A stretch of 64,000 bases of DNA from assembly GCA_026002795.1 (NCBI GenBank), contig BPGA01000001.1, positions 163,220 through 227,219 on the forward strand. Reading direction: 5' to 3'. The stretch is from Candidatus Pacearchaeota archaeon. Lineage in GTDB: Archaea; Nanobdellota; Nanobdellia; Pacearchaeales; GW2011-AR1. Below the pieces are notes generated by a model. That model saw nothing but the letters and a program-made list of their open reading frames with translations. It searched no databases and had not been told where the DNA came from. Position numbers and translations under genes: made by a program. Below are positions 37,196 through 64,000 of the stretch, one piece after another (the stretch's first letter is position 1; each line of letters begins with the position of its first letter).

Positions 37196-37198
37196 TTT

Positions 37199-42543: not shown

Positions 42544-44238
42544 TTAAAATTTTTTTCTTGTATTAACAACTTTTCCAAGTTCAGAAAAATTTTTTTCTTG
42601 AAAGATTAATTCTTCTAAAATTTTTTTTAGATTTTCTATTGGAACCCTTATTTGTTCTGTGGTATCTCTATCTCTAATTGTAACGTCTTTTTTCTTTAAA
42701 CTTTCTTCATCAATTGTTATACAAAAGGGAGTTCCTATTTCGTCTTGTCTTGAATATCTTCTACCAATACTTCCAGATTCGTCATAAAAAACATTAAAAT
42801 TTTTTTTAAGTTCGTTGTAAATTTTTTTTGATAGTTGAACTATTTTTTTATTTGTTTTTACTATAGGTAATATAGCTGCTTTTATTGGAGAAAGTTTTGG
42901 ATGTAATTTCAAAACAATATTTTCTCTTTTTTTATCATAATAAAAAGAATCAAACATAAAAACAAGAAAAGCTCTTTCAACACCTAAACTTGGTTCACAA
43001 ATAACATTTGGTAAAATTTTTTTTCCTGTTTCTTGATCAAAAATTTTTAAATCTTTTTTTGAGAATTTTTCATGCTGACTTAGATCAAAATTTCCTCTAT
43101 CTGCAATCCCTTCAAGTTCCTTCCAACCAAATGGAAATTTGTATTCTATATCCCAAGTGTCCGTTGAATAATGAGAAAGTTCATTTTTTTTATGCTGCCT
43201 TATTCTAAAATTATTCATGTCAGCTCCTAAATTTTTAAACCATAAAAGTTCTGTCGCGAGCCAGTAAGCGTGCCAATCTTTCTTGATTATGCCTTGTTTA
43301 AATGCTTCAGAAATTTTCATTTTCTCTGGCTCTAGATTTTTTTCTTGAGCTTCAGAAGAATAAATTAATATATCAATGTTTGGAATTTCATAAGGGCATT
43401 TTTCATCTAAAGGATTTATAAAGTATTCAATTTCCATTTGTTCAAATTCCCTGCTTCTAAATAAAAAGTCTCTTGGTGCGATTTCATTTCTAAATGCTTT
43501 TCCAATTTGTGCAATACCGCAAGGAAGTTTTAACCTAGAGTTTTCAAAAATATTTTTAAAGTTTATAAAAATTAGTTGGGCTGTTTCTGGTCTTAAATAA
43601 GCTTTTATTGAATTTTCTTTTATAGGACCAACTTCTGTAGTAAACATTGGATTAAACTCTGCTTTAATTTCGTATTCATTACCACATTTTTCGCATTTTG
43701 CATTTTTAATTTCTGATTTATCAATTTTTGTTTTATAACCACATTTTTTACAGCTGACAGCTATATCAACAAAACTAGCGACGTGACCAGAAGCCTCCCA
43801 AACTTTTGGATTTGTTATGATGCTTCCATCAATACCGACAATGTCATCTCTTTCTGTAACGTGATATTTCCACCATTCTTTTTTTATATTGTTTTTAAGT
43901 TCTGTTCCAAAAGGTCCAAAATCCCAAAATCCTGAAAAACCACCATAAATTTCAGCTGAAATATAAACAAAACCTTTTCTCTTACAAAAATTTGCAAGCT
44001 CTTCAATTGAAATTTCTTTTTTTTCCATTTCTGTTTTTTCTATGTCAATTTTTTTATCTTTTAAATTCTTCTCTAAAAATTCTTTTGCTCTTTTTTTTGC
44101 TTCATCTTTTGTTTTTCCTAGATAAGCAAGAGTTTTTGTTTTAACTTTAGTACTGCCATTATTTAAGCGAATTCTTTTATTTTCTTGTAAATAATAATAA
44201 ATTTTTCCACTAATTTTTTTCTTAACAATAAAGGCCAT
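42544..44238 (-). CDS. glyS: glycyl-tRNA synthetase (archaeal/eukaryotic alpha2 type)
   Basis: YISAEIYGGFSGFWDFGPFG, class II motifs, Zn-ribbon-like insertion CKKCG...CEKCG. Confidence 0.88.
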   Translation of the reverse strand: MAFIVKKKISGKIYYYLQENKRIRLNNGSTKVKTKTLAYLGKTKDEAKKRAKEFLEKNLKDKKIDIEKTEMEKKEISIEELANFCKRKGFVYISAEIYGGFSGFWDFGPFGTELKNNIKKEWWKYHVTERDDIVGIDGSIITNPKVWEASGHVASFVDIAVSCKKCGYKTKIDKSEIKNAKCEKCGNEYEIKAEFNPMFTTEVGPIKENSIKAYLRPETAQLIFINFKNIFENSRLKLPCGIAQIGKAFRNEIAPRDFLFRSREFEQMEIEYFINPLDEKCPYEIPNIDILIYSSEAQEKNLEPEKMKISEAFKQGIIKKDWHAYWLATELLWFKNLGADMNNFRIRQHKKNELSHYSTDTWDIEYKFPFGWKELEGIADRGNFDLSQHEKFSKKDLKIFDQETGKKILPNVICEPSLGVERAFLVFMFDSFYYDKKRENIVLKLHPKLSPIKAAILPIVKTNKKIVQLSKKIYNELKKNFNVFYDESGSIGRRYSRQDEIGTPFCITIDEESLKKKDVTIRDRDTTEQIRVPIENLKKILEELIFQEKNFSELGKVVNTRKKF

Positions 44239-44436: not shown

Positions 44437-44712
44437 TTGAAAAGAATGCATGATAAAATATCAGATTTAGTTCTAAAAACAATTCAAGAGTCAGATGAGC
44501 CTTTAGAAACAAAAGAAATTCAAGAAAAGATTATAACACAAATTAGAGGAGTTACACGAACAAAGATTTTTTATAGATTAAATTTATTGAGAGGAGAAGG
44601 ATTAATCAAAGGAAAATTTGTTGGGCCTGGAAAGGGTGTTTGGATTTGGTGGGCAGAAAACAATCTTCTAAAAAATGAACAAAAAAGAGGTGAAAATGAT
44701 AATTCAAGTTAA
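44437..44712 (+). CDS. small winged-helix DNA-binding protein (first gene of surface-protein operon); real start likely ATG at 44446
   Basis: WH-like ETKEIQEKIITQIRGVTRTKIFYRLNLLRGEGLIKGK; GGGGGT SD upstream; annotated start is TTG. Confidence 0.5.
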   Translation: MKRMHDKISDLVLKTIQESDEPLETKEIQEKIITQIRGVTRTKIFYRLNLLRGEGLIKGKFVGPGKGVWIWWAENNLLKNEQKRGENDNSS

Positions 44713-44932
44713 TGAAGTAAATAATTTAATAAAATTTGAAGAAGTTTTTACAAATTCAAAATTATTAAGAGGTATGATAAAATTAAGCTATATAATAAAT
44801 AAAAAAAGAAACTACTTTGTTTATACTTTTTTTGAGATTTGGAATCAAAAAACTCTTTTCAACCCGCATGGCTCTGATGTAAATTCAGAGCCATTATACC
44901 CATCAATAAAAAAAGAGGTGGAAAATGAATAG
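44675..44932 (+). CDS. hypothetical small protein
   Basis: 85-aa ORF overlapping both neighbours by a few codons (operon-like coupling); SD AGAGGTG upstream. Confidence 0.4.
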   Translation: MNKKEVKMIIQVNEVNNLIKFEEVFTNSKLLRGMIKLSYIINKKRNYFVYTFFEIWNQKTLFNPHGSDVNSEPLYPSIKKEVENE

Positions 44933-45527
44933 AAAAATTTTACTTTGGACATTTGCAATTTCAGGATTTACAGCTTTAGTTTATGAAATAGTCTGGAGTA
45001 GACAACTTCAGCTGATATTTGGCTCTACAGTTTATGCGGTTTCAACAATATTGACAACTTTCTTTGTTGGATTTTCTCTAGGCTCTTATCTATTCAGGAA
45101 TGTTGCAGATAATTCAAAAAATCCTGTAAAATTATTTGCATTAATTCAAATTGGAATTGGTTTATATGCTGTAATAATATTATGGCTTTTCAAGATTCTT
45201 CCGTCTTTTTATATTCATCTAACAAACATTCCAGGAATTCAGTTCATTCAATTTTTGTTGCTTTTTTTAATTATAATAACTCCAGCGACTTTATTTGGAG
45301 CTACGTGGCCAGTAATAAGCAAATCTTATATTGATTATGAAAAATTAGGAAAAGACACAGGAAGACTTTATGCATTCAATTCATTTGGCTCTTTCCTAGG
45401 GCCTCTAGCAGCAGGGTTTGTTTTAGTTCCTATTTTAGGGATAATAAAAACTTCTCTTTTAATGGCTTTAATTAATATAATAATCGGCACAATATTAATT
45501 TCAAGAGGTAAAAAAAATGAGAATTAA
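44925..45527 (+). CDS. polytopic membrane protein, paralog of the N-terminal TM module of the downstream spermidine-synthase-like protein
   Basis: TFAISGFTALVYEIVWSRQLQLIFGSTVYAVSTILTTFFVGFSLGSYLF parallels IAFVFSGAAALIYEITWIRPLQFVFGSTVYTISIIFAAFMGGLALGSLII of the next ORF; 6 TM. Confidence 0.65.
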   Translation: MNRKILLWTFAISGFTALVYEIVWSRQLQLIFGSTVYAVSTILTTFFVGFSLGSYLFRNVADNSKNPVKLFALIQIGIGLYAVIILWLFKILPSFYIHLTNIPGIQFIQFLLLFLIIITPATLFGATWPVISKSYIDYEKLGKDTGRLYAFNSFGSFLGPLAAGFVLVPILGIIKTSLLMALINIIIGTILISRGKKNEN

Positions 45528-47196
45528 TTTAAGAAGTTTACTAATAATAGCATTTGTGTTTTCAGGAGCAGCAGCTTTAATTTATGAGATAACATGGATT
45601 AGGCCATTGCAGTTCGTCTTTGGCTCAACTGTTTATACAATTTCTATTATATTTGCTGCATTTATGGGTGGCTTGGCTTTAGGATCTTTAATTATTTCAA
45701 AATACATTGATAAACTAAAAAACCTTCCAAAAACTTACGCATTATTTGAAATTGGAATAGGAATTTATGGTGTTTTGCTGTTAAGTATATTTAATCTGCT
45801 TCCTGGTATTTACAATTCATTATATTTCTTACATACAAACTTTTACTTATTTGAATTTGTACAATTCTTAATTGTCTTTTTGGTTTTATTGATTCCAACA
45901 ACTTTAATGGGTGCGACTTTTCCTGTTATTGCAAAATTCTATACAAAAGAAAAGATTGGAAAAGCCATTGGAGAAGTTTATTCTGCAAATAATGTTGGAG
46001 CAATAATAGGAAGTTTTGCTGCAGGATTTATTTTAATTCCTTTAATTGGAATAAAAGAAAGTATAATTTTTGCGGGCAGTATAAACATGTTAATTGGTTC
46101 AATAATAATTTTGAAATCAAAAAGTTTTGAGGAAAATAGAGATAAAATTTTCATAATAACATCAGTTTTATTGTTCCTTATTCTAGCTTATATTGGAAAT
46201 TACAGCATACAACAAATGCATTCTGGAGGATTTTATAGAACTTTAGAAATAGAAAAAGATCTTGGCCCTGTAATTTATTATAATGAAGGACTTTATGCAA
46301 CTGTAAGTGTAAGAGAACTTTTTGGAAAAGGAAAAGCATTATTTATCAATGGAAAAGGCCAGGGAAGTACTGGAATTTTTGATTTAAGAGTTAATTTTAT
46401 GCTTGCTTATTTACCAATATTATTAAAGCCGGATACTAAGGATGTATTAGTTATTGGTTTAGGAACTGGAACAACTTCTGGACAGCTTGCTCAAAGCGTT
46501 AATGTAAAAACTATTGAAATTGAATCAGCAGTTTTGGAAGGAAGTAAATATTTTTCAACTTTTAATTTAAATGTACTTGAAAATCCGAACCATACTTTAA
46601 TTATAGATGATGGAAGAAATTGGCTTTTGAAAAATGAAGAAAAATATGATGTAATAATTCCAGAACATAGTGATCCGTGGCAATCTTTTTCAACAGCATT
46701 ATTTTCAAAAGAGTTTTTGGAACTTGCCTCTGAAGATTTAGATGAAAATGGGTTGTATGTACAATGGGTTCCTATATATCAAATGTCTGTAAAAGATTTC
46801 AAAAATTTCTATAAAACATTTACTTCTGTATTTCCAAATGTTGTTGTATTTGCAAATATAAAACCAGATGAAGATACTCCTGTAAGATTTGAAACTTCTG
46901 AATTAATTTTTGTTGGTTCTAAAAATAAAATAAATATTAGTGAAGAATTAATTAATGAAAACTATAATAAATTACCGGAAATTTCCAAGCAACAGCTAAA
47001 TCTAATAAGATTATCTTCAGGTTCTGAAATTTATCATTTATTTGTTTTTAAAAGTGAACAAATGAAAGGCTATGCAGATGATGCAAAAATAATTACTGAT
47101 GATAATTTACTTTTGGAATTTTCAACAGCGAAACGAGTTTTAAATCAAGGTCCTAAGGAGGTGATAAATGATATTGAAAGGTTTGTTTCAGAATAA
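45517..47196 (+). CDS. membrane-embedded spermidine synthase-like (PABS/methyltransferase fold) fusion protein
   Basis: N-terminal ~7 TM module; C-terminal VLVIGLGTGTTSGQLAQ ... VKTIEIESAVLE ... LIIDDGRNWL resembles spermidine synthase AdoMet-fold. Confidence 0.7.
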   Translation: MRINLRSLLIIAFVFSGAAALIYEITWIRPLQFVFGSTVYTISIIFAAFMGGLALGSLIISKYIDKLKNLPKTYALFEIGIGIYGVLLLSIFNLLPGIYNSLYFLHTNFYLFEFVQFLIVFLVLLIPTTLMGATFPVIAKFYTKEKIGKAIGEVYSANNVGAIIGSFAAGFILIPLIGIKESIIFAGSINMLIGSIIILKSKSFEENRDKIFIITSVLLFLILAYIGNYSIQQMHSGGFYRTLEIEKDLGPVIYYNEGLYATVSVRELFGKGKALFINGKGQGSTGIFDLRVNFMLAYLPILLKPDTKDVLVIGLGTGTTSGQLAQSVNVKTIEIESAVLEGSKYFSTFNLNVLENPNHTLIIDDGRNWLLKNEEKYDVIIPEHSDPWQSFSTALFSKEFLELASEDLDENGLYVQWVPIYQMSVKDFKNFYKTFTSVFPNVVVFANIKPDEDTPVRFETSELIFVGSKNKINISEELINENYNKLPEISKQQLNLIRLSSGSEIYHLFVFKSEQMKGYADDAKIITDDNLLLEFSTAKRVLNQGPKEVINDIERFVSE

Positions 47197-50100
47197 AAAA
47201 GGTTTAATTCAAAAAAGTATGACTTTAATTTTCATAGCTTTTGCTTTATTTGCTTTAATATTTTTGGTATATAATTCAAAGTATGCTTCAGCTGCAAAAT
47301 CAGATCAATTCTTTATAGGCAATTTTACATGTGAAAGTTTTGAAGATGCTCTTTTATGGAGTGCTGTAGGACAAAAAAGTGCACCAACAAATAGTTATTT
47401 TGGATGGGTACCGGCAGTAGGATGTAATTCAAGCATTAATACAGTAGGTCCTAAAGCATGTGATATACATAAAATACAAAGTTTTGTAAGATATTCAAAT
47501 ATTGGAACAGCGAATAGTTTAACTACAGGACAAGTATATGCTCAAATCGCAAACACAACACAATCAAATGAAACAAACCCTTCATCAGCAAACTTTACTT
47601 TAGCAAGATATTTTGCAAGATTAAATGAAACGGTAGTTGCGGGAGATGTTTTAGGTCCAAGATATGAATGTGGAATTGCTTCAGACACTACTTCAATAAA
47701 TAGAACATGTCAAGTTAATGGAAGTGGATATGATAACAGCACTTTTAATTATTCTGTTCGTTTATTTGCAGATGGAGCTGCTAATGGAAAAACAAGAGCT
47801 TTAATTGATGTTTTCAATATAAAATACGACTGGTGTTGGACGCCAATAATTTATGATGCAGTTGTGACTCCTGACATTGCAGATAATGAAACAACTTTCA
47901 CATTTACCATTAATGTTACAAATCCTGGAGCAACAACAAATGTTTCTTTGTTTACAGCACCTCTAGGATCAAATGAGTGGGTACAGGAAGGGGCTACTCA
48001 AACTTGTATAGATTGTGCACAAAAAAAGCTGACATTTAATGTGAATTTTGGAAACCGTATTGGAAAAAGAATTTTTAAGTTTAATGCAACAGACGGCACT
48101 TACGGCACTGAAGCTGGAAATCCAGCACATTTAGGAACAGCAACAAACGAATGCCTTGACACAGATAATGATTGCCAGTTTGAAGTAACTCAAGCAGCGG
48201 CAGCACAGGGAACTCCAAATATCATAAATGAAACAGTAAATGGTGTTCAGTCAGGAGCTGTTGAAGGCTGGGGAACAAACTGGACTTTTTCTGTAAATGT
48301 AAGTAACCCTCCTGATGGAGCAGGAGATATTAATGTAACTCTTTTTGTTAATACTGGGTCTGGCTTTATACAAAAAGCATCTGCAAATTGTACAGCGCCT
48401 TGCTCCAGCTCAACAAAATTTACTTTCTTTGTGGATGATTTTCAATGTTCTGATATTTCTTCTGCTCAATACAGATTTACTGCAACCAATCTTAACGGAA
48501 CTACAACTGTAACCCACCCATTTACAATCGAAAGAGATGATGTAATTATTGAGCATATTCAAGGAAACAATAGCATTGCAAATAGAAGTGGAAACCAGAT
48601 AGATTTGCTTATTGTTAGGGTTTTTGACTCTGATAAAGCTCCTTCAGGAGCATATATTGGAAGTGGAACAAATGTTACTTTTAACGTAAAATTTGATGAT
48701 GTAAACTTTGATGCTGGAACAAACAGAACAACAAATTCATCTGGATATGCTAATTATTCTTTTGACCCAACATGTTCTCCAACAAAATACCAAGTAGGAA
48801 ACAGAGAATGGAAAGCTTCAACGTCAGGAGATTCATGTTATAAAGATGTAACCTCAAGTATTCTTAACTTATCAATTGCAGGAGATATTATTCTTACATT
48901 TAATGAACCTGATGGTTCAAGCAACTTTACTCAGGAAGATGAAATAACTTTCCTTGGAGCAACAACAGATGATTGCGGAGATGCTTTAGTTACAACAGTA
49001 AAGTATTATGCAAACTCTTCTGAAGATAGCTTTGCATGTACTTCAACAACACAAATAGGTGCAAATGCATTCCAGTGTGTTTATACAACTTCTCTTTCAG
49101 ACACAAGAGGTTATTATAATACAACAATGCTAGCAAATAGAACTCTACATTATGATAATCAAACAAGTAATGTTGGAAATCCTGGATTATTCTATTTATT
49201 CCCTAGAAAAAAGCTTACAAATCCAACTGCAAATCCAACTGCAGAAGGTTGGGGTAAACCAAACTGGAATTTCTCTGTTTTAGCAAGTTCTGGTGATATT
49301 GACAATGTTCTTCAGGTTAACTTATTTATGGCACAATCAGTAAACCCAACAACACAATGTACTTCACCTACATGTCAGAATCAAACACCAATAATTTGTG
49401 ATGCTGTTGCTGGTTGTAGTAATCAGCTTGTAACTTATTATAGAAACTTTACAGCATCTGATCAAGGAACATGGTTCTTCCAATTTAAGTTTAATGATAC
49501 TGAACTAACTTCAACATCAGGAACTGAGTTTTCAGTTGTTGTTGAAAAAGATGATACAAATATAAGCTATGGTGGTCAGGGAAATGCAACAACTGTAATT
49601 AAAGATACACAACCACAGAATCTTTCAGTTCGTGTTTTTGATTTAGATAAAAACAGCTATAATGTAACATTGCCAAGCGCAAATGTAACATTTAAGCTTC
49701 TTGATCCTGGTTATGCTGGTGGTGAAAAAATTATTGGATATGCTCTTACAAATGAAACAGGCCATGCAACATTCTTGTTTAATGTTACAGAGTGTAATTT
49801 CCAGCAAGGAACTCAGAAATGGATTGGTGAAATTCTTTCAACAGAGCCAAATTACAAACCAAGTAAGTCAGAGAACTTTACAATAACAATAAATCTTCCT
49901 GGATGTGAAGCAACTGTTTCAGTTGAAAATGTTATAACACCTACTGAAACATTCCAAAACATTAACTTCACAATAAATTCAACAATTGCTGCATTTATAT
50001 CAACTGCAAATGATGTTAATGTTACATTAAATGTTCCTTCTGGATGGATTGTAGGACCAAGTGCAACACAAAGCCTTGGAAGTGTTGTACCAGGAACTCC

Positions 50101-53100
50101 AAAAACAGTTTCATGGACAGTTAATGCAACAAGTTATGGAAGGTTTAATGTCTCTGTATTTGCAAACTCAAGTGATGCTGGAAATGACACCCTTGACTCT
50201 TCAAACTTCCAGGTTTATAAGGAAGAGCTAAAAGGAACAGCATTAAGCCCAACACTGCCTTCTATTGTTCAAGCTGGAGGAAATATTACAGCATCATGGC
50301 AGTGTAGTGTTGGAGATTATAGAGTTGCAACACTAAACATAAATGCAAATACAAGTTCAAGTCCAACAACAATAAGGGTTTTGACTTATAATGGAACAGA
50401 TTTTGTAGATGTTCTTCACTCTAAGTCTGTTGACACAAATAACACAATTAAAACAATAAAAGTTCCTCTTTTAAGCAAGCAAATTGATAGCAATGAGACA
50501 GGATTCTGTAATGTAAAAATATTTAATCTAGGAAGCAACAGTATAAATATAACAGACATTTCATTGGAAGCTTATTACAATGAAACTGTTTCTGTAAGAG
50601 ATGTCCAAGCAAGTGTTAATGGTGTAAACACAACTGGAATTGAAAGTTCTGAAACATTGTTTAATGTTTCTGCAATTCTTGCTAACTCAATAAATCAGAG
50701 CTTCTTGGCTAATGTAACTCTTAACATAACAAACTCTTCAGGAGTTGTTTTCACATCAACAAACAATAACATTAATATTCCAGCATTAGGAAGCATACAA
50801 ACAAACTTCATTAACATTAACACTTCAAACTGGAGTGTTGGAAATTATAGTATTGAAGTTTATGCAGTTGGAAACTTCACAAAAGCTAATAACAAAACAG
50901 AAATTCTAATCTTTAACAATGTTGAGATTTATGCAGATAGTACAAAATACATATGCAACAGTACAACTGAAACATTTAATGTAACAATATTCCATCCTTT
51001 CACAGATACAATACAATACAACATTTCCTTAGAAATGCCTTCTGGTTGGTCTTATTCAGGAGCACAAACTGTAAACATTTCAACAATTGGAAATCATTCA
51101 TTCATATTTAACATAACATCAAGCAATGCTGCTGCTGAAAATGCAACAATAAACGCAACAATAAACTACAGCTATCCTGGAATTAATAAGCTGAAAAAAA
51201 CAAGCTTTAATATCGAGGAAGGTAACAATATACCAATACTAGAAATAATAAGAGAGAGTCCGAGAGTTGTGTCAAGTAATACAGAGTTTGTTTCAAGATT
51301 AATTGTCTACAATAAAGGATGTGCTTTAGCAAATTCAATTAGTTTAACAGAAAAGGTTTCTTCTGGTTGGACAGCTTATACTCCTTCCATTGATGGAGTT
51401 TTGGGTGGAATTGCTGACATTCCTAAAGGAGAAATAAGATATACTGAAAATGACTTAGGAACAATTAGAGCAAAAGAGTACAAAGTTTTGTCTTACTTCA
51501 TATTTTCTCCATCAGGGCTTAATGAAATCGGAAAATTAAGATATAATCTAACATGGGGCTCAAGAAATAATTATGAGCCTACAGAATTCACAATAAATAC
51601 TTCAAAATACACTAAAGAATCTCATCTTTCCTATAATATAAGAGCAGTAGGAAGCTTTAAAGATAGGTCTGCAGAAAAAGATGAAAATCAACTTTATGAA
51701 TTTAATGTGACGAATATTGGTGATTTCAACATTACAAATGCAACTTGGAATGTTAGCTTAAGCATTCCTAATGAATGTTCTCCTTCAAACTATACAGGTA
51801 TTTTCAACTCCACGACAAGAAAAATAACATGGCCTCTTGGAACACTAAATGTTTCTAATACAAAGAGTTTCTTCCTTAATTTGAATTGTACTGTTGAAAA
51901 TAGATTTGTTTTAGTTGCCGAAGGTACTAATGACACAAGAACACAAACAAGCTTTAGCAATAACACTGGAATTGGTTGTAGTTTCAGTTCTGGAAATGAG
52001 TGCTCTTCAGTTTCAAGCTTTACATTTAGTAAGCCAAGCAATGCAAGATATGAAAAACTTTCTAGTGTGAATGCAACAATATTCTACAACTTTACAGACT
52101 TTAAGATGACAGTTGGTGAAGGAGCAATAAACTTTAGTGATGATTTCAATAAGTTTAGAATTTTATGGCAGAACTATTCTATAACAACTCCTGATGGAAC
52201 TTCTGGAACAGTTGTTGCTAACTATACTCTTGATTCTAGTGAACAAGATTCTTTTGTAAACTCAGCAAGAAATATTGGTGTAAGAGCTTATGTTGATGCA
52301 ACTTCTTCTGCAAAGGGAAATGTAACATTACAAAAAATTGATTACACCTGGGATCACGGAAAGCTTTTCAATGAGAGTCAGAATTTGTTTATAGATATTC
52401 ATCCTTTCATATTTGATCTGCCAACGCCTGTGTTACAAACACCTTTAAACAATTCTCTTCAAGCAGCTGTACCTGTTGGTTTATCATGGGAAGCTATAAG
52501 CGCGCCACAAGGAATAAATATAACTTATTATGTATTTGGTGATAGCACAAATGCTTCTACATTACTTGATGTAATAACAGAAAACCTTTATTTATGGCGT
52601 GATTTAGGAGCAACACAAGGAACATTTTATTGGAAAGTTATTGCAAGTGATGGAACACAAAATAAAAGCTCTGAGATAAGACAGTTTACTCTTGATTTAT
52701 GTCAGCCAAACACTAATTTCGCTTTTGCTTTAAATTATCCAATGAGTTATAATCTAACAACAGATACAATTACTGTTTGGGGTAGTAATGGCACTGGATT
52801 TACTGCAATGGGTAACAATGAAAGTAATCCTATAACTTTCAAGAACATATTTGAATTTGGACAGGCAGTAAGAGGTGTTTGTGCTGTTACTAATCCTTCT
52901 TCTGGATCATATGTTATTTTAAGTAGATTAGAATTAGGCAATGTAACAGATCCGTTAAATACGACTTTTGTAAAAACAACTGGAGAGTCATTAAGCTTTA
53001 ATAAGCAACTTCAATTAAACTTCAATGCCACCCTCATTTCTGGTCAGTTAACACAAGGGGGCTCTCCATTTGGAGGATCAACTCTTTCATTTTCTGGCTT

Positions 53101-56100
53101 AGATGCTGTTAATCAAGAAGAAGGAGAGTTTTACTTAAAACCAGGATCTAAGTTAAGATTATATGATACAGGTGTTTTACATACAATAACAGCAAATAAT
53201 TCAAATCCATTTAGGCTTTATTGGAATGGTGATGTAATTGCAAAAGCAAGCACTTTACAAAACTGGTACACTATAAGATTCTTAGGATCAAACAACACAA
53301 TAGACAACTTAATTTTAACAAATATGGGAGAAGGATTCTTCCCAGCAGCGACGCAGATAGGTGTTTTAACAAATATAAGACCAAGTGGAATTCAAAAAGG
53401 TGGGTTAATGCTTGAAGGTAATGCAAATTCTACAATAACTAGCTTAGAAGTTCAGGAAGCTACAAATGATATACTTGTTCAAAATTATACAGGTACAACA
53501 AACTTAATTAATGCAAATTTGAATTTCAGTAATATAAACTGGACAACAGGTACATTCTCTGGAAAAATTAACAGAAAATACGATTATGAGCCAACAGTAA
53601 CAGATAGTGCTGGAATACCTATTTCAAATACAAGTATGGTTTTATTAGATACTAGAGGAGAAATTATATTTGACTTGTTTACAGATTCTTTAGGAAAAAT
53701 ACCAAAGCAAACAATAACAAGAGCTATTTATGATTATAACTTTAAGACAGGAGATGATAGAGGTCCACATACTCTAAAAATAAAGAAATACGGAAAAACT
53801 TTCCAGTCTTTAGCAAAGCAATTCTCTGCAGCAACAATTGAAACATTACAGTTAACAAATAATCCATTCATAAATAGAACAGAGGCTCAGGCAAAAAATC
53901 AAACAGGAATAAAATTCAATCCTCCAATAAGAGTACCATATGGAGCTGAAATATATCAAAACTTTAATACAACAGGAAAACTTAATAACTCTCCTATAAC
54001 ACAATCAGAATTCTTTGCAGTATTTGGATTTGATGGTGTTAATGAAAATAGAAAACTTACTCTTGTTACAGGTAGTCCTAGTGCAAATGGAGAGTTTAGT
54101 GTAAATTATGCAACAGGAGAATTAATTTTCTTCAATGATCAAACCGGCCACAATGTAACTCCTGTTTATAGTTATGGAGGAAATATTACAATTTCTACAG
54201 GAACTGCTTCACAAAATTGTATTAGCATGAGCAATCTTTATGATTACATGCAAGCAAACCTTTCAGATGTTATTACAACAGTTGATGGAATTACATATAC
54301 AATGTTTGTAAACCTTATAATAGGAAATAACACTGTGGGAGGGTGTATTGTTGATCCTAAGGCATCTATAGTGTTTGAAGATGGCTATACTTACAGCTTT
54401 AGTCCTATAGGTGGTTATATTGATTTAGCAGGAATAACTGCAGGAGGCGGAACTTCGGGAAGTGGAATTAATCCATTAAGTATAGTAGATTCTGTTGGTT
54501 CACAGTATAATCCTGGAGATGTAGTTGATGTATTTTCAACAACTTACGAATCCTCAACAGGAAATTTAATTGATGCAACTGTAAATGTAACAATATTTTA
54601 TCCAAATAATAGTATTTTAGTAAGTGGTATATCAAATAAAATATCTACTGGATTTTATAAGTTTAATACAACTCTTCCAGATAATTCTCCTTTAGGAACT
54701 TATGGAATTTTAATAAGAGCTAATGACTCTTCTGGTAATGTTGTTAATGATGTTCTTTCATTTAAAGTTGAACAAAAACAAATTTCTTCTGGATTTGCTC
54801 TTAATATGTTTAACACAATAGGAAGTACTTATGGTTTTGGTGATGTAGTAAAGTTATTCACGACAACAGTAAATTCTTCTGGCAACCTAGTAAACTCAAC
54901 AGTTAATGTTGCTGTATTCTATCCTAACAATACTTTGTTAAATTCTGGGCAGTCTTCTTTAGTCTCTACAGGAAGATTTGAATACAGCTTTATTGCTCCA
55001 ACAGTTGAAGGAACTTATAGAATAAATGTAGATGCAAATTATTCTGGAAACGAAGCGCACGATACAGAATCATTTATAATTTCAGCTACAAGTTCTGGCG
55101 GTAGTGTATCAACTCCTCAGATTTATGTAGAGGCACCTTCTGTAGTGAATGTTAATACGAACTTTAGTATAGTCTCTCTTATAAACAGTGAAAGTGGAAT
55201 TCCTGTAAATTGTGATTCTGGAGCAAATTTGACAATAAAAGATAGCTTAAATGGTGTTAATGTTTTAAATGAAACCCCAATGACAAACTTTGCTCTTGGT
55301 CTTTACAATTACACCTATTTAGCATCAACACCTTCAAGTTATTTAGCAATAGTTGATTGTATAATCTCGAATGTAGAGTATAAAGGAATAAAAGCATTTT
55401 CGACACAAGGAGTTCCTCTTCCAAAAAAAGCTGTTGTTGAAATGTCTGATTTTGATGAGGTTTTAGCTGGAAAGAATTTCAGAGCAAAAATCTGGATATT
55501 TGATCAAAATGGAGTTCCTATAAATGCAGATTCTACACCAACAATAACTCTTTATGATCCTCTAAGAAATATTATTGTTCAGAATGTATCTATGACACAA
55601 ATAAGTACTGGAATTTATGAGTACAACTTTACAACTTCTTCTGGTCTAACTGGTGGAGTATGGGAAGCTATTGCAAATGTTGTTGTTAATGGTATAAACT
55701 ATCAACCTTCTGACTTTTGGGAATTAGAATCAAGTCCAGCTCAAGTTAAGATTAATAGTATTGTAGATAATACAATACCCACAATAACAGCAGATGTAAC
55801 AATAACAAATGAGGGTTCTGGAGCTCAAGAGTATCAGTATGAGTATTGTATAGTTTCTGAACAAACTAATCAGTGTGGTGGAGATGATGATATTGATTAC
55901 GCGTCTGGAGCAAAACTATTAAATCCAGGAGAAAGTTTCAATACTTTGTTAACTTTAGACGGTGTAACCTCTCCTGGAGATTATTATTTCAAAATTGTTG
56001 TTTATTTTGGAACAGAAAAAAGTGGGGCTTCTCAATTATTTACAGCTGTAGAAGAAGGCGCACCAACACCAGCACCTGCACCTAGCGCTCCTTCTGGAGG

Positions 56101-56764
56101 TGGTGGGGGAGCTGCTCCAATAACACCTCCTGAAATTGTGAAAGAAGAGAAACCAACGGGTAAATTGTACTTATTTAATTTAAATATAGATATAATAAGT
56201 TTAAGGGCTTTAACATTGCTCCAAAACTCTATTGAAACTAATAAAGAGTTTTTAACATCAAAACAAATATTTATAGACTTTTCATCGCTAAACCCAACAA
56301 GAGATGAACTTATTCTAGAGACCAAAACAAACATAACTGACTTTTCATCAATTAAAGGAGAAAAAGACGTTGTGTTAGAACACTCTATAGAAGATCCAAA
56401 TGGAAAAGTTTATGTATCTAGCTTTGAAACAAGAAAAATAAACAATTCAGAGATAGTAATAAAGGAAATTAAAATTCCTGCAAGATTGTTGAGTGTTGGC
56501 AATTATCTTGTTGTTGCTAAGTTAACATACAATAATGAAACCTTTATTGGTAGAGATGTATTTGCTATTGTAAGCAAAGAACCAGAAGCAAAAATTGAGA
56601 GTATAAGCATATGGATTTTAATTATTGTTTTAATTTTATCGATAATATTAGTTATTACAATAATAAGATTGATTATTAAAAAACAAGCATATAAAAGAAA
56701 AATTGAACAGAGATTGCAGGAAAAAGAAAGTTTAAAAAAAGTAGAAAGGTATATTAAAGAATAA
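47168..56764 (+). CDS. giant (3198 aa) cell-surface protein: N-terminal signal anchor, sequon-rich Ig-like/CARDB-like repeat modules, Pro/Ala/Gly linker, C-terminal TM anchor with coiled cytoplasmic tail
   Basis: Single uninterrupted ORF; N-term LIFIAFALFALIFLVY; very many N-x-S/T sequons; recurring EGWG(T/K)NW(T/N)FSV and VNVT(I/V)FYPNN modules; PTPAPAPSAPSGGGGGAAP then IWILIIVLILSIILVITIIRLII. Confidence 0.85.
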   Translation: MILKGLFQNKKGLIQKSMTLIFIAFALFALIFLVYNSKYASAAKSDQFFIGNFTCESFEDALLWSAVGQKSAPTNSYFGWVPAVGCNSSINTVGPKACDIHKIQSFVRYSNIGTANSLTTGQVYAQIANTTQSNETNPSSANFTLARYFARLNETVVAGDVLGPRYECGIASDTTSINRTCQVNGSGYDNSTFNYSVRLFADGAANGKTRALIDVFNIKYDWCWTPIIYDAVVTPDIADNETTFTFTINVTNPGATTNVSLFTAPLGSNEWVQEGATQTCIDCAQKKLTFNVNFGNRIGKRIFKFNATDGTYGTEAGNPAHLGTATNECLDTDNDCQFEVTQAAAAQGTPNIINETVNGVQSGAVEGWGTNWTFSVNVSNPPDGAGDINVTLFVNTGSGFIQKASANCTAPCSSSTKFTFFVDDFQCSDISSAQYRFTATNLNGTTTVTHPFTIERDDVIIEHIQGNNSIANRSGNQIDLLIVRVFDSDKAPSGAYIGSGTNVTFNVKFDDVNFDAGTNRTTNSSGYANYSFDPTCSPTKYQVGNREWKASTSGDSCYKDVTSSILNLSIAGDIILTFNEPDGSSNFTQEDEITFLGATTDDCGDALVTTVKYYANSSEDSFACTSTTQIGANAFQCVYTTSLSDTRGYYNTTMLANRTLHYDNQTSNVGNPGLFYLFPRKKLTNPTANPTAEGWGKPNWNFSVLASSGDIDNVLQVNLFMAQSVNPTTQCTSPTCQNQTPIICDAVAGCSNQLVTYYRNFTASDQGTWFFQFKFNDTELTSTSGTEFSVVVEKDDTNISYGGQGNATTVIKDTQPQNLSVRVFDLDKNSYNVTLPSANVTFKLLDPGYAGGEKIIGYALTNETGHATFLFNVTECNFQQGTQKWIGEILSTEPNYKPSKSENFTITINLPGCEATVSVENVITPTETFQNINFTINSTIAAFISTANDVNVTLNVPSGWIVGPSATQSLGSVVPGTPKTVSWTVNATSYGRFNVSVFANSSDAGNDTLDSSNFQVYKEELKGTALSPTLPSIVQAGGNITASWQCSVGDYRVATLNINANTSSSPTTIRVLTYNGTDFVDVLHSKSVDTNNTIKTIKVPLLSKQIDSNETGFCNVKIFNLGSNSINITDISLEAYYNETVSVRDVQASVNGVNTTGIESSETLFNVSAILANSINQSFLANVTLNITNSSGVVFTSTNNNINIPALGSIQTNFININTSNWSVGNYSIEVYAVGNFTKANNKTEILIFNNVEIYADSTKYICNSTTETFNVTIFHPFTDTIQYNISLEMPSGWSYSGAQTVNISTIGNHSFIFNITSSNAAAENATINATINYSYPGINKLKKTSFNIEEGNNIPILEIIRESPRVVSSNTEFVSRLIVYNKGCALANSISLTEKVSSGWTAYTPSIDGVLGGIADIPKGEIRYTENDLGTIRAKEYKVLSYFIFSPSGLNEIGKLRYNLTWGSRNNYEPTEFTINTSKYTKESHLSYNIRAVGSFKDRSAEKDENQLYEFNVTNIGDFNITNATWNVSLSIPNECSPSNYTGIFNSTTRKITWPLGTLNVSNTKSFFLNLNCTVENRFVLVAEGTNDTRTQTSFSNNTGIGCSFSSGNECSSVSSFTFSKPSNARYEKLSSVNATIFYNFTDFKMTVGEGAINFSDDFNKFRILWQNYSITTPDGTSGTVVANYTLDSSEQDSFVNSARNIGVRAYVDATSSAKGNVTLQKIDYTWDHGKLFNESQNLFIDIHPFIFDLPTPVLQTPLNNSLQAAVPVGLSWEAISAPQGINITYYVFGDSTNASTLLDVITENLYLWRDLGATQGTFYWKVIASDGTQNKSSEIRQFTLDLCQPNTNFAFALNYPMSYNLTTDTITVWGSNGTGFTAMGNNESNPITFKNIFEFGQAVRGVCAVTNPSSGSYVILSRLELGNVTDPLNTTFVKTTGESLSFNKQLQLNFNATLISGQLTQGGSPFGGSTLSFSGLDAVNQEEGEFYLKPGSKLRLYDTGVLHTITANNSNPFRLYWNGDVIAKASTLQNWYTIRFLGSNNTIDNLILTNMGEGFFPAATQIGVLTNIRPSGIQKGGLMLEGNANSTITSLEVQEATNDILVQNYTGTTNLINANLNFSNINWTTGTFSGKINRKYDYEPTVTDSAGIPISNTSMVLLDTRGEIIFDLFTDSLGKIPKQTITRAIYDYNFKTGDDRGPHTLKIKKYGKTFQSLAKQFSAATIETLQLTNNPFINRTEAQAKNQTGIKFNPPIRVPYGAEIYQNFNTTGKLNNSPITQSEFFAVFGFDGVNENRKLTLVTGSPSANGEFSVNYATGELIFFNDQTGHNVTPVYSYGGNITISTGTASQNCISMSNLYDYMQANLSDVITTVDGITYTMFVNLIIGNNTVGGCIVDPKASIVFEDGYTYSFSPIGGYIDLAGITAGGGTSGSGINPLSIVDSVGSQYNPGDVVDVFSTTYESSTGNLIDATVNVTIFYPNNSILVSGISNKISTGFYKFNTTLPDNSPLGTYGILIRANDSSGNVVNDVLSFKVEQKQISSGFALNMFNTIGSTYGFGDVVKLFTTTVNSSGNLVNSTVNVAVFYPNNTLLNSGQSSLVSTGRFEYSFIAPTVEGTYRINVDANYSGNEAHDTESFIISATSSGGSVSTPQIYVEAPSVVNVNTNFSIVSLINSESGIPVNCDSGANLTIKDSLNGVNVLNETPMTNFALGLYNYTYLASTPSSYLAIVDCIISNVEYKGIKAFSTQGVPLPKKAVVEMSDFDEVLAGKNFRAKIWIFDQNGVPINADSTPTITLYDPLRNIIVQNVSMTQISTGIYEYNFTTSSGLTGGVWEAIANVVVNGINYQPSDFWELESSPAQVKINSIVDNTIPTITADVTITNEGSGAQEYQYEYCIVSEQTNQCGGDDDIDYASGAKLLNPGESFNTLLTLDGVTSPGDYYFKIVVYFGTEKSGASQLFTAVEEGAPTPAPAPSAPSGGGGGAAPITPPEIVKEEKPTGKLYLFNLNIDIISLRALTLLQNSIETNKEFLTSKQIFIDFSSLNPTRDELILETKTNITDFSSIKGEKDVVLEHSIEDPNGKVYVSSFETRKINNSEIVIKEIKIPARLLSVGNYLVVAKLTYNNETFIGRDVFAIVSKEPEAKIESISIWILIIVLILSIILVITIIRLIIKKQAYKRKIEQRLQEKESLKKVERYIKE

Positions 56765-56788: not shown

Positions 56789-57241
56789 TTGTTATTATTT
56801 AAAATGGTGCTTGACTCTTACACTACATCAATTATAATAAATCTTTTTTCGTTGTTTTTTTGTCTAGTTGCAATTTTTTTATTATTTGAAATAAAAAAAA
56901 GGGTTGTTGGTGATTTTGCAAGAGGGTTTACTTTCTTAATTTTTTCAATTATAATTGTTTTTATTTTTATTTTGTTTTCTCTAATAAATAAGACAAAACA
57001 AACAGAATTAAACTTATTAAATGATTTTTTATTTTTTATTTTTACTTTTTTTGTTTCTATGTTTACTATAAGTATGTATAATGTTTTGGGAAGAATAATA
57101 AAAGAAAGAAAAAAGATCCGTGAATTTGATAAAAAAGAAAAAGTTAGTAAGAAAAAAAATAAATTAGTGGAGTCTAGAAAGCCAAAGATAAGTTTAATTG
57201 GTGGTGAGGAGTATATAGACCTAACAAATATTAAAGAATAA
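56789..57241 (+). CDS. small membrane protein with basic C-terminal tail, hypothetical (last gene of operon)
   Basis: 3 TM helices then KERKKIREFDKKEKVSKKKNK. Confidence 0.45.
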   Translation: MLLFKMVLDSYTTSIIINLFSLFFCLVAIFLLFEIKKRVVGDFARGFTFLIFSIIIVFIFILFSLINKTKQTELNLLNDFLFFIFTFFVSMFTISMYNVLGRIIKERKKIREFDKKEKVSKKKNKLVESRKPKISLIGGEEYIDLTNIKE

Positions 57242-57249: not shown

Positions 57250-58968
57250 TTATTGGTTTTTTTTCAAATTTCTTATGCGTCTTACAATAAGCAAAACAAC
57301 AATAAGCACAGAAACAACTCCTAAAAGAAGGACAAATCCTCCTGTACCGAAACCTTCAAAAATTGCAAAACCTGTTGGTGCTCCGAGTGTAATTGGCTCT
57401 TGAACAAATACCGAATAAATTTGTGAGTTCAATGAGGCTTGTAAAGTTAAGTTTCCTTCAATTGTTTCGTTAATTTGCATATTTGTCCTAAATTCTTTTT
57501 CAGAATTTGCATCTATTGTTTTGTTTTCTGTAATGTTTGAAACCTGCTGGTTATTTTGGTCTAATATTAAGAATTTTATTTCTACATTTTGATCTTGACC
57601 AGCGAGTTCTTTTAAAGAGTACAAAACCCTAATCCTATCACTTCTTGTTCTTTGAACATCTATTATATCAATGTCAAGTTTTTTGTTTACAACATTTACT
57701 GTTAACTCTTTAGTTGAAGAAGTTTCGCCACAATTTACATTTATTGAAATTTTTCTTTCACCATCTGTCAAATTTTGTGGTAAAGAAAGAACTAGTGTTA
57801 AACTAGAAGATTCTCCTGGATTTAGGTTTTTTTCTTCTGGTGAAATGTTAAACCATGAAGAAAATTCTTCTTGAATAGAAAGTTTACAAGAACTTAATGC
57901 AACATTGCCTGTATTTTGTATGTTTAAAGCTAAATTTTGGCTTGATCCTGGGTTTAAAGTTAAAGTAGGTAAATCAGCAACAGAAAGCTGAATTATTGTT
58001 GGTTGTTCTTGCACTTGTTGTTGTTCTGTTGTTTGTTGTTGAATTTCGTTTGTGATTTCATTTGGTGTCTGTGTTGTCTCGTTTGTTGTCTCATTTATTG
58101 TTTCTGTCGTTTCGTTTGTTGTTTGTTGGCTTTCTGAAGTTTGGTTTGTTGTTTGTTGTTGTGTTTGCACACTAAAAGATGAGCTTGTATAATTAAAACC
58201 AGAGGTTCCGTTTGCATAAAGATTAATAATGTAACTCCCATCTGAAGAAAGGTCAAATGTTGAGTTTGCGCAGTTAGAAAGTGTTGTGTTTTGTATCACA
58301 AAATTGTTTGAAGAATCAATAACATTGTACCAGCAGGTTAAATTCACTCCTTGAACATTGTAAGTTATAGGAATTCCTGTAGTTGTTGTTTTTTCTCCTT
58401 TTGGTTCAATTATTGTCAGTAAAGTCTGGCTTTGTTGTTGCTGTTGCTGAATTGCTTTGTAGTTTATTGAAACACTTGAAACAAATGGTGTTAATATTTG
58501 AGATGTGTTTGTTTCGTTTGAGGTTAGGTTGTAACCAGAAAAAGAGATTTTATATTGGAAGTACCTAGAATTTAAATTTAAAGGAGAAAGATTTATTGTT
58601 TTGTTATTTCCTACATCTTGAAAGGAAACGTCTGAGCAATTTTGTAAGGAACATGCTTTAACACTAAAAACTAAAGAAGTATTTTCAGGAATTTCTCCTT
58701 GCCAGCTTAAATTTAACCAAGAAGAGTTTTCGCCAGCATCGAAAATTCTTGAGATATAAATTCCATTTAAACTTCCTGAAGAAGAATTTAAAACTAAAGC
58801 GCTTCCATTGTAAAAAGTATTAGAGTAATTTCCTTGATCAAAATCAGCTTGGCTTGATTCTTGAAAAATTGCAAATCCTGTAAATTGTAAATTAAAAAAA
58901 TAAAGAATAGCTAAAGCTAAAAAAACTAAAGCAAAGACAGAAATATAAATTTTAACCTCTTTTCTCAT
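57250..58968 (-). CDS. anchored cell-surface protein with Gln/Thr/Asn-rich linker and PGF-CTERM-like C-terminus
   Basis: N-terminal signal anchor; QQTTNQTSESQQTTNETTETINETTNETTQTPNE linker; C-terminal PTGFAIFEGFGTGGFVLLLGVVSVLIVVLLIVRRIRNLKKNQ; N-terminus also has FTGFAIFQE. Confidence 0.7.
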   Translation of the reverse strand: MRKEVKIYISVFALVFLALAILYFFNLQFTGFAIFQESSQADFDQGNYSNTFYNGSALVLNSSSGSLNGIYISRIFDAGENSSWLNLSWQGEIPENTSLVFSVKACSLQNCSDVSFQDVGNNKTINLSPLNLNSRYFQYKISFSGYNLTSNETNTSQILTPFVSSVSINYKAIQQQQQQSQTLLTIIEPKGEKTTTTGIPITYNVQGVNLTCWYNVIDSSNNFVIQNTTLSNCANSTFDLSSDGSYIINLYANGTSGFNYTSSSFSVQTQQQTTNQTSESQQTTNETTETINETTNETTQTPNEITNEIQQQTTEQQQVQEQPTIIQLSVADLPTLTLNPGSSQNLALNIQNTGNVALSSCKLSIQEEFSSWFNISPEEKNLNPGESSSLTLVLSLPQNLTDGERKISINVNCGETSSTKELTVNVVNKKLDIDIIDVQRTRSDRIRVLYSLKELAGQDQNVEIKFLILDQNNQQVSNITENKTIDANSEKEFRTNMQINETIEGNLTLQASLNSQIYSVFVQEPITLGAPTGFAIFEGFGTGGFVLLLGVVSVLIVVLLIVRRIRNLKKNQ

Positions 58969-63444: not shown

Positions 63445-63984
63445 TTAGCTGCAAATATCGCTGAAAAGTGAATTTATTTTATTTCTATTTGATTGGCTTA
63501 AAACACTCTCAACATAGTACTTAGTTGCTTCTGTACACCCCCAACCATTATAACTTCTTAATGCAGCTTTCCATCCAGTGTATTTTGTGTTAGTGCATGT
63601 AAATACTCTACCATCTTTATTTTGATTGTAGCTGTTAATCAAGATGTCAATAGCATAATTTACGTTTTCATTAAAGTCAAGCACATTTACATTTTGATGA
63701 GCTTTTCTATTTATTTGCATAATTCCGAAACTTTCCTCACCATTTAAATTTTTTATAACTTTTTCCTCGTTGTTGTTACAGTAAAGAGGGTTGTTATTTT
63801 CTTGAAAGCCTGAAATCCCTGTTGAAGTAAACTCACCACAGTGGAAGATATTGCTTTCTATATTAGCGACCATTAGTGTAAGACATTCAAAATTTTTAAC
63901 ACCTGTATCTTGTAAAACTTTTTCATCTGAAATTCCTTTTTGTGTTTTAGCTTCTTGCGCTAATTTTACTATTTCATAACCCAA
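63445..63984 (-). CDS. lysozyme-like/soluble lytic transglycosylase (SLT) domain protein; N-terminus may extend beyond window end
   Basis: SLT catalytic segment ESFGIMQIN and downstream YN.G aromatic/Gly patch; ORF reaches to within 16 nt of window end. Confidence 0.55.
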   Translation of the reverse strand: MGYEIVKLAQEAKTQKGISDEKVLQDTGVKNFECLTLMVANIESNIFHCGEFTSTGISGFQENNNPLYCNNNEEKVIKNLNGEESFGIMQINRKAHQNVNVLDFNENVNYAIDILINSYNQNKDGRVFTCTNTKYTGWKAALRSYNGWGCTEATKYYVESVLSQSNRNKINSLFSDICS

Positions 63985-64000
63985 AACTTTTTGACATTCC

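Follow-up and report, generated by a model that had tools for sequence, protein, structure and literature searches.

Much of archaeal diversity belongs to the DPANN archaea, most of which are believed to live in attachment to other cells. To our knowledge, essentially nothing is known of the molecules that make this contact except in Nanoarchaeum and the nanohaloarchaea. In the latter, giant surface proteins were proposed to mediate host contact (PMC10266531), and large extracellular proteins suspected to be related to symbiosis were noted in Pace- and Woesearchaeota (PMC8204110). Here, we analyzed 64,000 nucleotides of a Candidatus Pacearchaeota archaeon (contig BPGA01000001.1, positions 163,220 to 227,219), which we call the window, and in it a 9.6-kb open reading frame (ORF) that encodes a 3198-aa protein, the giant. 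We propose that the giant is probably an N-glycosylated, type I-anchored, adhesin-like surface fiber of a very small and probably symbiotic DPANN archaeon of the Woesearchaeota/Pacearchaeota type, encoded in a conserved operon together with membrane proteins dedicated to it. By analogy with the proteins just named, its likeliest role would be to contact a host or a partner cell.

The SPEARE proteins of the Nanohaloarchaeota (SVXNc_0300, of 9409 aa, and BNXNv_0298) are similar in that they belong to small DPANN genomes and have a Sec signal, a membrane anchor, and a huge ectodomain in which Ig/FN3-like domains are repeated in tandem (PMC10266531). They and the giant also lie in strain-variable loci, and host contact is proposed for both (PMC10266531). 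In contrast to the SPEARE proteins, the giant has no VirB4/TraG-like ATPase domain detectable by Pfam, its tail is only 28 aa long, and there is no VirB4 gene downstream. Furthermore, the SPEARE proteins are acidic proteins of halophiles, whereas the giant is saturated with N-glycosylation sequons; a sequence relationship is undetectable, and the giant's operon partners are different ones (a winged helix-turn-helix [wHTH] protein and proteins related to the major facilitator superfamily [MFS] and to spermidine synthase [SpdSyn]). The large SLT-domain extracellular proteins of DPANN archaea occur in the same lineages, are likewise giant and extracellular, and are suspected of a role in symbiosis (PMC8204110). 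The giant belongs to a separate family from these, and neither it nor its long relatives have an SLT, Amidase, or other catalytic domain according to Pfam and NCBIfam. A large SLT-domain protein is probably encoded at the right edge of the window, or at that position in the related locus L001.

Archaeal S-layer glycoproteins, such as those of Halobacterium and Haloferax, have a signal peptide, heavy N-glycosylation, a Thr/Pro-type linker, and a C-terminal anchor. The giant shares with them the signal peptide, the density of N-x-S/T sites, the near-membrane linker, and the single hydrophobic anchor at the C terminus, but its size is several times theirs, it varies or is truncated from one relative to another, and Pfam finds no S-layer domain in it. 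It also differs from PGF-CTERM substrates: the giant has no PGF anywhere, and KEPEAKIES precedes its transmembrane helix. We found no description in the literature of the giant's family or of an SpdSyn-like gene linked to a giant surface protein gene, and the family would thus be an undescribed one of a known kind, that of giant DPANN surface proteins. What is new here is a giant family that shares no recognizable sequence with the described DPANN giants, is without their VirB4 or SLT domains, and is encoded in a conserved operon of a different kind.

The giant gene is intact, its frame being open throughout 3198 codons, and Thr (10.6%), Asn (9.9%), and Ser (9.7%) are abundant in its product. 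A strong Shine-Dalgarno sequence, AAGGAGGTGA, is located 5 nt 5' of the ATG at 47168, within the 3' end of the preceding gene. The GC content is 33% across the gene versus 27 to 28% in its flanks, and 25 to 30% in the window. The original prediction placed this sequence in an AT-rich archaeon, which is borne out by the archaeal housekeeping genes of the window (MCM with an archaeal winged helix, GatD/GatE, TFIIB, LSM, S8e, S17e, a tRNA-intron endonuclease, and many aminoacyl-tRNA synthetases [aaRSs]) and by the relatives, all of which come from DPANN metagenome-assembled genomes. Neither tandem nor dispersed DNA-level repeats were detected in the giant gene, and we therefore dismiss phase variation through repeat number. 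Scans for sigma-70 promoters and terminators yielded only background levels and are uninformative for an archaeon.

The giant was searched as three segments among 5.8 billion proteins, and each segment returned only 8 to 10 relatives, which are 31 to 61% identical and nearly all of which end at contig ends. The relatives are labeled Woesearchaeota, Pacearchaeota, Nanoarchaeota, or Aenigmarchaeota, and a scan of one genome per species gave 21 giant-family loci from the same DPANN lineages. Three independent assemblies hold full or near-full orthologues (L011, ~3854 aa with a 100-N gap; L015, 3568 aa; L030, 3239 aa), all collinear with the giant from the signal peptide onward, and the long fragments P0005, P0019, and P0023 are collinear with it across 1200 to 1400 aa. 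Module copy number and length differ widely among the relatives, as the comparison of syntenic loci advised in the original prediction made clear. Of the refuting case named in the original prediction, a well-described family in conserved synteny, only half applies: synteny is conserved in the giant's family, but the family itself is undescribed. As an aside, L014 (CAYMBN010000022.1) and P0021 carry the giant family although they were binned as "uncultured Methanosarcinales archaeon" and "Proteobacteria bacterium," respectively; mis-binning is the probable cause, and co-binning of a symbiont with its host is conceivable. The giant gene and its predicted parts are as follows.

47168..56764, forward strand: giant surface glycoprotein gene, 3198 aa, based on the open frame, sequons, and orthologue collinearity.
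47168..47293, forward strand: signal peptide, aa 1-42, with predicted cleavage after YASA, hydrophobic aa 12-35, and a conserved site.
47294..47857, forward strand: Cys-rich, N-terminal, membrane-distal "tip" domain, aa ~43-230, with invariant C55 and W222-C223-W224.
48209..50299, forward strand: duplicated ~340-aa supermodule, aa 348-690 and 690-1044, each an EGWG beta-sandwich, a VRVFDxDK Big_1-like sandwich, and a Cys-rich part.
52415..54457, forward strand: single-copy central region, aa 1750-2430, with an FN3/Ig-like unit, ~300 aa without an assigned fold, a prealbumin/CarboxypepD_reg-like sandwich, and ~200 aa more.
54470..56047, forward strand: tandem array of MG2-like beta-sandwich domains, about five of ~107 aa each, at aa 2435-2960, from the Pfam MG2 match and a self-alignment offset of 102 to 109.
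56057..56131, forward strand: low-complexity Pro/Ala/Ser/Gly linker, aa 2964-2988, of sequence PTPAPAPSAPSGGGGGAAP.
56132..56602, forward strand: membrane-proximal domain of ~155 aa, aa 2989-3145, poorly conserved (24 to 28% identity), with few sequons.
56603..56761, forward strand: transmembrane helix, aa ~3146-3170, followed by a cytoplasmic tail of 28 aa that is rich in Lys/Glu and ends in ESLKKVERYIKE.

Sequon saturation, as claimed in the original prediction, held up under quantification. The giant contains 139 sequons of the form N-x(not P)-S/T, or 4.35 per 100 aa, when 61.6 ± 6.5 are expected from shuffling its residues (z = 11.9) and the reversed motif occurs 79 times. The other window ORFs of at least 150 aa carry 0.59 per 100 aa, making the giant ~7-fold denser. 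In an offset control on the ectodomain, S/T follows N at +2 in 145 cases versus 51 to 69 at +1 and at +3 to +6. Sequons take up 44% of all the giant's Asn residues, N-x-T outnumbers N-x-S (90 versus 49), and none lies in the signal peptide, the transmembrane helix, or the tail. In a query-anchored alignment of the giant with 20 relatives, with an overall identity of 46%, the Asn is kept at 61% of the aligned sequon positions versus 34% for other Asn residues, and 55% of the sequons are still sequons in the relatives. All orthologues have a density of 3.4 to 7.1 per 100 aa. At the level of sequence, this shows that the sequons are enriched and under selection; the giant itself is presumably N-glycosylated.

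The giant has only two hydrophobic segments, one at each end (aa ~12-35 and ~3146-3170). The first had been read as a signal anchor in the original prediction. A cleavable Sec signal peptide is more likely, since a basic, K-rich n-region and a hydrophobic core are followed by a small-x-small site (YASA, with the predicted cut before the next A), and a cleavage-like site (SAA, SAE, or SAG) is conserved in 8 of the 9 aligned orthologues. The tip domain behind it has no match in Pfam and, at 37 to 40% identity, is the least conserved stretch of the ectodomain. It is also found at the C terminus of a separate secreted protein encoded upstream in many relatives. The first 900 aa of the giant contain ~24 Cys residues, many of them invariant.

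The modular, beta-rich character of the ectodomain was likewise supported, in part by profile self-comparison. Plain self-BLAST of the giant found no internal repeats, even at lenient settings, and only the profile comparison revealed them. With hhalign, aa 348-690 match aa 679-1044 at an offset of ~335 to 347, which defines the supermodule, and related units of ~100 aa lie at aa 225-320, 350-455, and 680-790. Distant relatives have two to five supermodule copies, and in more distant ones the block of aa 350-1750 is repeated or permuted. The recurring motifs listed in the original prediction are indeed present, though with just two or three occurrences each: aa 366 and 693 for EGWG, 483 and 821 for VRVFDxDK, 2472 and 2579 for VNV(T/A)(I/V)FYPNN, and 2493, 2600, and 2813 for STGx(Y/F)(E/K). 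Pfam matched NPCBM_assoc in one stretch of the giant (aa 946-987), and among the relatives it gave weak matches to Big_1 (as in P0021), DUF11, and CarboxypepD_reg.

The central region is the best-conserved part of the giant, with 50 to 70% identity compared to the overall mean of 46%. An exhaustive HMMER search with it recovered 343 relatives at E<1e-3, 46 of them at <1e-30. Its first ~100 aa form an FN3/Ig-like unit that occurs in up to 29 copies in other giant proteins, and a later part is shared with proteins of 400 to 500 aa, in which it is a CarboxypepD_reg/prealbumin-like sandwich. MG2 follows the central region directly in all long relatives, including P0027, P0028, and P0044. In the giant, Pfam MG2 (PF01835) scores 45.1 bits (cutoff 32.8) in two stretches. 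Along the whole protein, identity rises from 37 to 40% in aa 1-300 to 43 to 52% in aa 300-1700 and 50 to 70% in aa 1700-2300, with its maximum at aa 1900-2000; it is 38 to 47% in the MG2-like array and 24 to 28% in the membrane-proximal domain and tail.

At the C terminus, the linker, the transmembrane helix, and the Lys/Glu-rich tail are all as originally described; the stalk does not adjoin the helix, however, the ~155-aa domain (aa 2989-3145) lying between them. The end of the tail, ESLKKVERYIKE, recurs as ESLKKIIRHIKE in L011, EDLKKLMHYIKDEV in P0006, and SELHNIIKHMKRD in P0001. Because such close variants end these proteins, the motif suggests a conserved cytoplasmic contact. In a separate observation, a ParA/MinD-like (CbiA-family) ATPase gene adjoins the giant cluster in five loci (L005, 21564..22358; L001, 10242..11057; L006, 304..1101; L024; and L028), and its product may be linked to the tail motif.

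Database comparisons did not place the giant in any named family, in agreement with the original prediction. Pfam returned only MG2 and NPCBM_assoc, NCBIfam returned no match, and no credible PDB match emerged by sequence or by profile, whether for the complete protein or for segments A1, A2, and A4; the profile search found no PDB relative of the central region either. Extending Pfam to 8 long relatives and 11 central-region homologues added only generic beta-sandwich families, and no catalytic, lectin, or S-layer domain was detected in the giant or its relatives by Pfam, NCBIfam, or PDB sequence and profile searches. The AlphaFold2 models are of low confidence (pLDDT 42 for aa 1-1100, from 9 sequences; pLDDT 37 for aa 1700-2450, from 6 sequences), and DSSP finds both to be all-beta. 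Foldseek, run on one of them, retrieved only proteins with multiple macroglobulin (MG) domains, topped by CD109, TEP1, A2M, C3, and C5, with TM-scores of 0.13 or less on a low-confidence model; this weak evidence would indicate no more than "a string of beta-sandwiches."

With alpha-2-macroglobulins, complement factors, and thioester-containing proteins, the giant thus has in common an MG2 match above the gathering score and those Foldseek hits, and NCBI labels its relative P0002 an "MG2 domain-containing protein." Only the generic MG beta-sandwich is shared. The giant lacks the thioester motif C(G/L)EQ in a regular expression search, as well as the bait, TED/A2M_comp, A2M, and receptor-binding (A2M_recep) domains by Pfam. 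It is also unlike the bacterial RTX adhesins of type I secretion systems, as it contains no GGxGxD repeat and has both an N-terminal signal peptide and a C-terminal transmembrane helix.

The locus is variable between genomes. The gene order of L001 matches that of the window on both flanks, with proteins 33 to 85% identical (endonuclease, S17e, tRNA-Met, VanZ, HIT, and aaRS on the left; tRNA-Cys, tRNA-Arg, Lactamase_B, LSM, S8e, and TFIIB on the right). The variable segment, at 44.3 to 60.1 kb in the window, is bounded in both genomes by the aaRS gene and the tRNA-Cys/tRNA-Arg pair. Between these borders the window has the full 12.8-kb operon, and L001 has a response regulator, a giant remnant, the ParA/MinD-like ATPase, and a hydrolase. 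The remnant (5979..10238) is 5' truncated and signal-less, and it is homologous to the giant from aa ~2010. Such a pattern fits a fast-evolving interaction locus, and the apparent dispensability of the gene, together with its differing module number, is what would be expected of an interaction protein.

The genes that accompany the giant are listed below.

44437..44712, forward strand: small winged-helix protein, 91 aa from TTG 44437 (ATG 44446 is the likelier start), with weak Pfam wHTH matches (HTH_12, FUR).
44675..44932, forward strand: small orphan ORF of 85 aa (78 aa if ATG 44696 is the start), with Shine-Dalgarno AGAGGTGA upstream of ATG 44696.
44925..45527, forward strand: MFS-like half-transporter with six transmembrane segments, 200 aa; NCBIfam NF037959, 64.5 bits (cutoff 40), profile positions 4-183 only.
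45517..47196, forward strand: fusion of an MFS-like part with seven transmembrane segments and a spermidine-synthase-fold domain with a degenerate dcSAM motif, 559 aa.
56789..57241, forward strand: small membrane protein with three transmembrane segments and a K-rich tail, 150 aa, 24 nt 3' of the giant.

The order is thus wHTH, orphan ORF, MFS-like half, MFS/SpdSyn-like fusion, and giant. The original prediction of a tightly packed operon is supported by ORF overlaps of 8, 11, and 29 nt, by GAGGT-type Shine-Dalgarno sequences within each preceding ORF (GAGGTGG, AGAGGT, and AAGGAGGTGA just 5' of three start codons), and by an order kept in many genomes. Relatives in differing genomic neighborhoods present wHTH, often two secreted proteins, the MFS half, MFS/SpdSyn, and the giant. 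In 8 of 11 distinct genome loci, the cluster begins with a homologue of the winged-helix protein (56 to 70% identical), and the protein is likely a regulator; an AT-rich, TATA-like tract lies upstream of its gene at 44404-44411. The orphan ORF has no homologue in any fetched locus. Its slot is occupied in relatives by genes for two secreted proteins, an acidic one of ~250 aa and a Cys-rich "tip-domain" protein of 437 to 726 aa, the C-terminal domain of which is homologous to aa ~48-227 of the giant. Neither a remnant of the tip-domain gene nor a ParA/MinD-like gene was present in the window. The small membrane protein 3' of the giant may be encoded by the last gene of the operon; it has no sequence homologue in the loci, where relatives have unrelated small proteins with three transmembrane segments at that place.

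The MFS-like half has six hydrophobic segments with K/R-rich ends, is preceded by GAGGTGG 5' of its ATG, and is a paralogue of the N-terminal portion of the 559-aa protein encoded next, being 41 to 46% identical to aa 1-200 of that protein's orthologues. The 559-aa protein matches Pfam Spermine_synth (PF01564, 64.9 bits), SpeE structures in the PDB (E 4e-13), and NCBIfam NF037959 (MFS_SpdSyn, 82.3 bits, cutoff 40). It shares with the fused MFS/spermidine synthases (NF037959; PRK03612) an N-terminal domain of many transmembrane segments and a spermidine-synthase fold, and it differs from them in a GLGTG motif, in variable catalytic acidic positions, and in its strict linkage to a giant gene. 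Alignment to Thermotoga maritima SpeE (1inl) shows that GGGDG is replaced with GLGTG and DSTDP with EHSDP. The first replacement is found in all orthologues, and the acidic positions of D-S-x-D-P vary (EHSDP in the window, ESTNS in L008, QTSDP in L030). In SpeE, the Asp of GGGDG selects decarboxylated S-adenosylmethionine (dcSAM) over S-adenosylmethionine. The protein also scores below the SpeE equivalog cutoffs (129 bits versus 472 for PRK03612, 80.5 versus 260, and 78.7 versus 249.6). Because of the GLGTG motif, the variable acidic positions, and the missed cutoffs, it is unlikely to be an ordinary aminopropyltransferase, and the label "polyamine aminopropyltransferase" for a protein without the dcSAM-selecting residue is likely a mis-annotation.

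The linkage was also examined starting from the partner, by scanning metagenomes for proteins related to the 559-aa protein. Among loci at least 45% identical and with readable downstream DNA, 17 of 17 have a giant-family ORF that overlaps the stop codon or begins within ~20 nt of it, as opposed to 0 of 37 among loci that are 38% identical or less. The MFS-like membrane proteins are probably dedicated partners of the giant, which might serve, for instance, as a membrane platform, an export or modification helper, or an anchor. In L078 (3796..6282), an ORF of 829 aa comes after a distant MFS/SpdSyn relative of 35% identity; this ORF has 6.4 sequons per 100 aa and by BLAST lies outside the giant family, and the linkage between SpdSyn-like proteins and glycoproteins may extend beyond this family.

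Taken together, we propose a model in which the polycistronic operon would yield the giant along with the wHTH protein, likely a regulator, and the paralogous MFS-like pair, one member of which is fused to an SpdSyn-fold domain without the dcSAM-specifying Asp. The giant would be exported by the Sec pathway and its signal peptide cleaved after the A-x-A site. An archaeal oligosaccharyltransferase would then glycosylate the ~3100-aa ectodomain at many of the 139 sequons, and the chain would fold into ~25 to 30 beta-sandwich modules, arranged as a Cys-rich distal tip, the duplicated supermodules, a conserved central "business" region, and a stalk formed by the MG2-like array. The single C-terminal transmembrane helix would hold the protein, with the conserved tail motif (E/D)LKK..(R/H)(Y/H)IK exposed to the cytoplasm, and the resulting adhesin-like filament could span the distance between the small cell and a surface or partner cell. 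We also speculate, as a rather unlikely extension, that the MFS-like half, the MFS/SpdSyn-like fusion, and the wHTH protein constitute an unrecognized DPANN-specific machine dedicated to the giant, either a heterodimeric platform of six plus seven transmembrane segments, with the catalytically altered SpdSyn-fold domain docking the tail, or a modifier, through that domain, of the fiber or of its lipid-linked glycan by methyl or aminopropyl transfer. If so, the operon would be a new archaeal system for assembling or anchoring surface fibers, underlying episymbiont attachment.

Several observations weigh against this adhesin proposal. Since no oligosaccharyltransferase gene lies in the 64-kb window, the case for glycosylation comes from sequence statistics. 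Pfam and NCBIfam detected no lectin, LamG, PKD, or other recognized binding domain in the giant; the AlphaFold2 models lend adhesion no structural support. The best-conserved central region, with no assigned fold, could be enzymatic or lattice forming. Seen from the giant's side, the MFS/SpdSyn pair is present in about half of the distinct genome loci and absent from the rest. The topology of these partner proteins is contradictory: the seven transmembrane segments and the positive-inside rule would place the SpdSyn-like domain outside, while its sequons, 0 to 4 and unconserved, are like those of a cytoplasmic domain.

We weighed other explanations of the giant. Its type I transmembrane anchor, heavy N-glycosylation, and beta-sandwich domains resemble those of archaeal S-layer glycoproteins, and the window has no other obvious S-layer gene, as would fit an S-layer or main envelope lattice protein rather than an adhesin. 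We nevertheless find this role, which the original prediction had put forward next to that of an adhesin, unlikely. At 3198 aa the giant is 2 to 6 times the size of known S-layer proteins, it has neither PGF-CTERM nor an S-layer Pfam domain, and its relatives vary widely in module number and length. In addition, L001 retains conserved flanks around nothing more than a signal-less remnant of the gene, which argues against an essential wall protein. A role in attack or foraging seems improbable as well. It would have the central region, at aa ~1850-2150, bind or cleave a host envelope polysaccharide, like phage tailspikes or the SLT-bearing DPANN giants. Its 50 to 70% identity, the highest in the protein, and its single copy ahead of MG2 in all long relatives are in keeping with such a role, as are PbH1-like (beta-helix-like) repeat patterns recognized by eye only in distant homologues and the ORF at the window end, which takes the position of a 3698-aa SLT/Amidase_3 giant in L001. 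Yet neither the giant nor 11 diverse homologues matched a beta-helix, lyase, or hydrolase in Pfam, NCBIfam, or PDB-profile searches, and as Pfam gave only generic beta-sandwich families, the beta-helix idea stays unproven.

The extreme density of glycan sites along nearly the whole ectodomain, and a second sequon-rich membrane protein encoded next to the operon, could instead point to a glycocalyx or a decoy coat that guards the cell from desiccation, viruses, or the defenses of the host, comparable to halomucin or mucin-like shields. We judge this quite improbable, as the giant consists of folded, Cys-containing, moderately conserved modules in a conserved order rather than mucin repeats, has no DNA-level repeats, and comes with dedicated operon partners. 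Finally, giant genes are often broken or mis-joined in metagenome assemblies, most relatives end at contig ends, and the GC content of the gene departs from that of its flanks, all of which might raise the suspicion of an assembly chimera or a decaying pseudogene. On the other hand, no stop breaks the frame over 9.6 kb in a genome of 28% GC; the start, signal peptide, transmembrane helix, and tail are all conserved; and the GC shift fits a Gly/Ala/Thr/Ser-rich composition. Since the domain order is collinear with at least three independent assemblies and the gene has no internal DNA repeats that could cause mis-joins, a chimera is very unlikely, and the ORF is a real gene. The adhesin-like surface fiber is the reading that we retain. 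Our analysis delineates a giant glycoprotein family across Woese-, Pace-, Nano-, and Aenigmatarchaeota-type genomes, with a module map, sites under selection, and a conserved operon, and it offers targets for antibodies, cryo-electron tomography, glycoproteomics, and binding assays in enrichment cultures.

The sequon-rich neighbor of the operon is the following.

57250..58968, reverse strand: second sequon-saturated type I membrane glycoprotein, 572 aa, with 27 sequons (4.7 per 100 aa), convergent with the operon.

This protein has a hydrophobic segment at each end and a Gln/Thr/Glu-rich linker. In L010 and L036, homologues are encoded in divergent orientation immediately 5' of the wHTH gene, and its N-terminal domain (...SRYFQYK...) is similar by eye to the C terminus of P0004. 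At the right edge of the window, an ORF on the reverse strand (63445..64000) is open to the window end just after TFIIB and tRNA-Leu, where L001 has its SLT/Amidase_3 giant. It shows a weak SLT_3 match (E = 0.099) and no alignment to L001, and its assignment as an SLT protein is mainly positional.

Other features of the window were noted in passing. The tRNA-Arg(TCG) gene (21439..21527, reverse strand) is, at 89 nt, long for its type and may hold an archaeal intron. The window is unusually dense in aaRS genes (13520..16109, reverse strand; 24334..25761, forward strand; 34320..39673; and 42544..44238, reverse strand), which comprise two adjacent class II Asp/Asn/Lys-type paralogues, ProRS, AlaRS, LeuRS, and a further class II enzyme of the HGTP-anticodon type, in addition to GatD/GatE. 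Lastly, the gene at 22809..23933 (reverse strand) encodes a protein of 374 aa that contains a CAP (cysteine-rich secretory protein) domain and 5 sequons, a density that in the window comes next after those of the two surface proteins.

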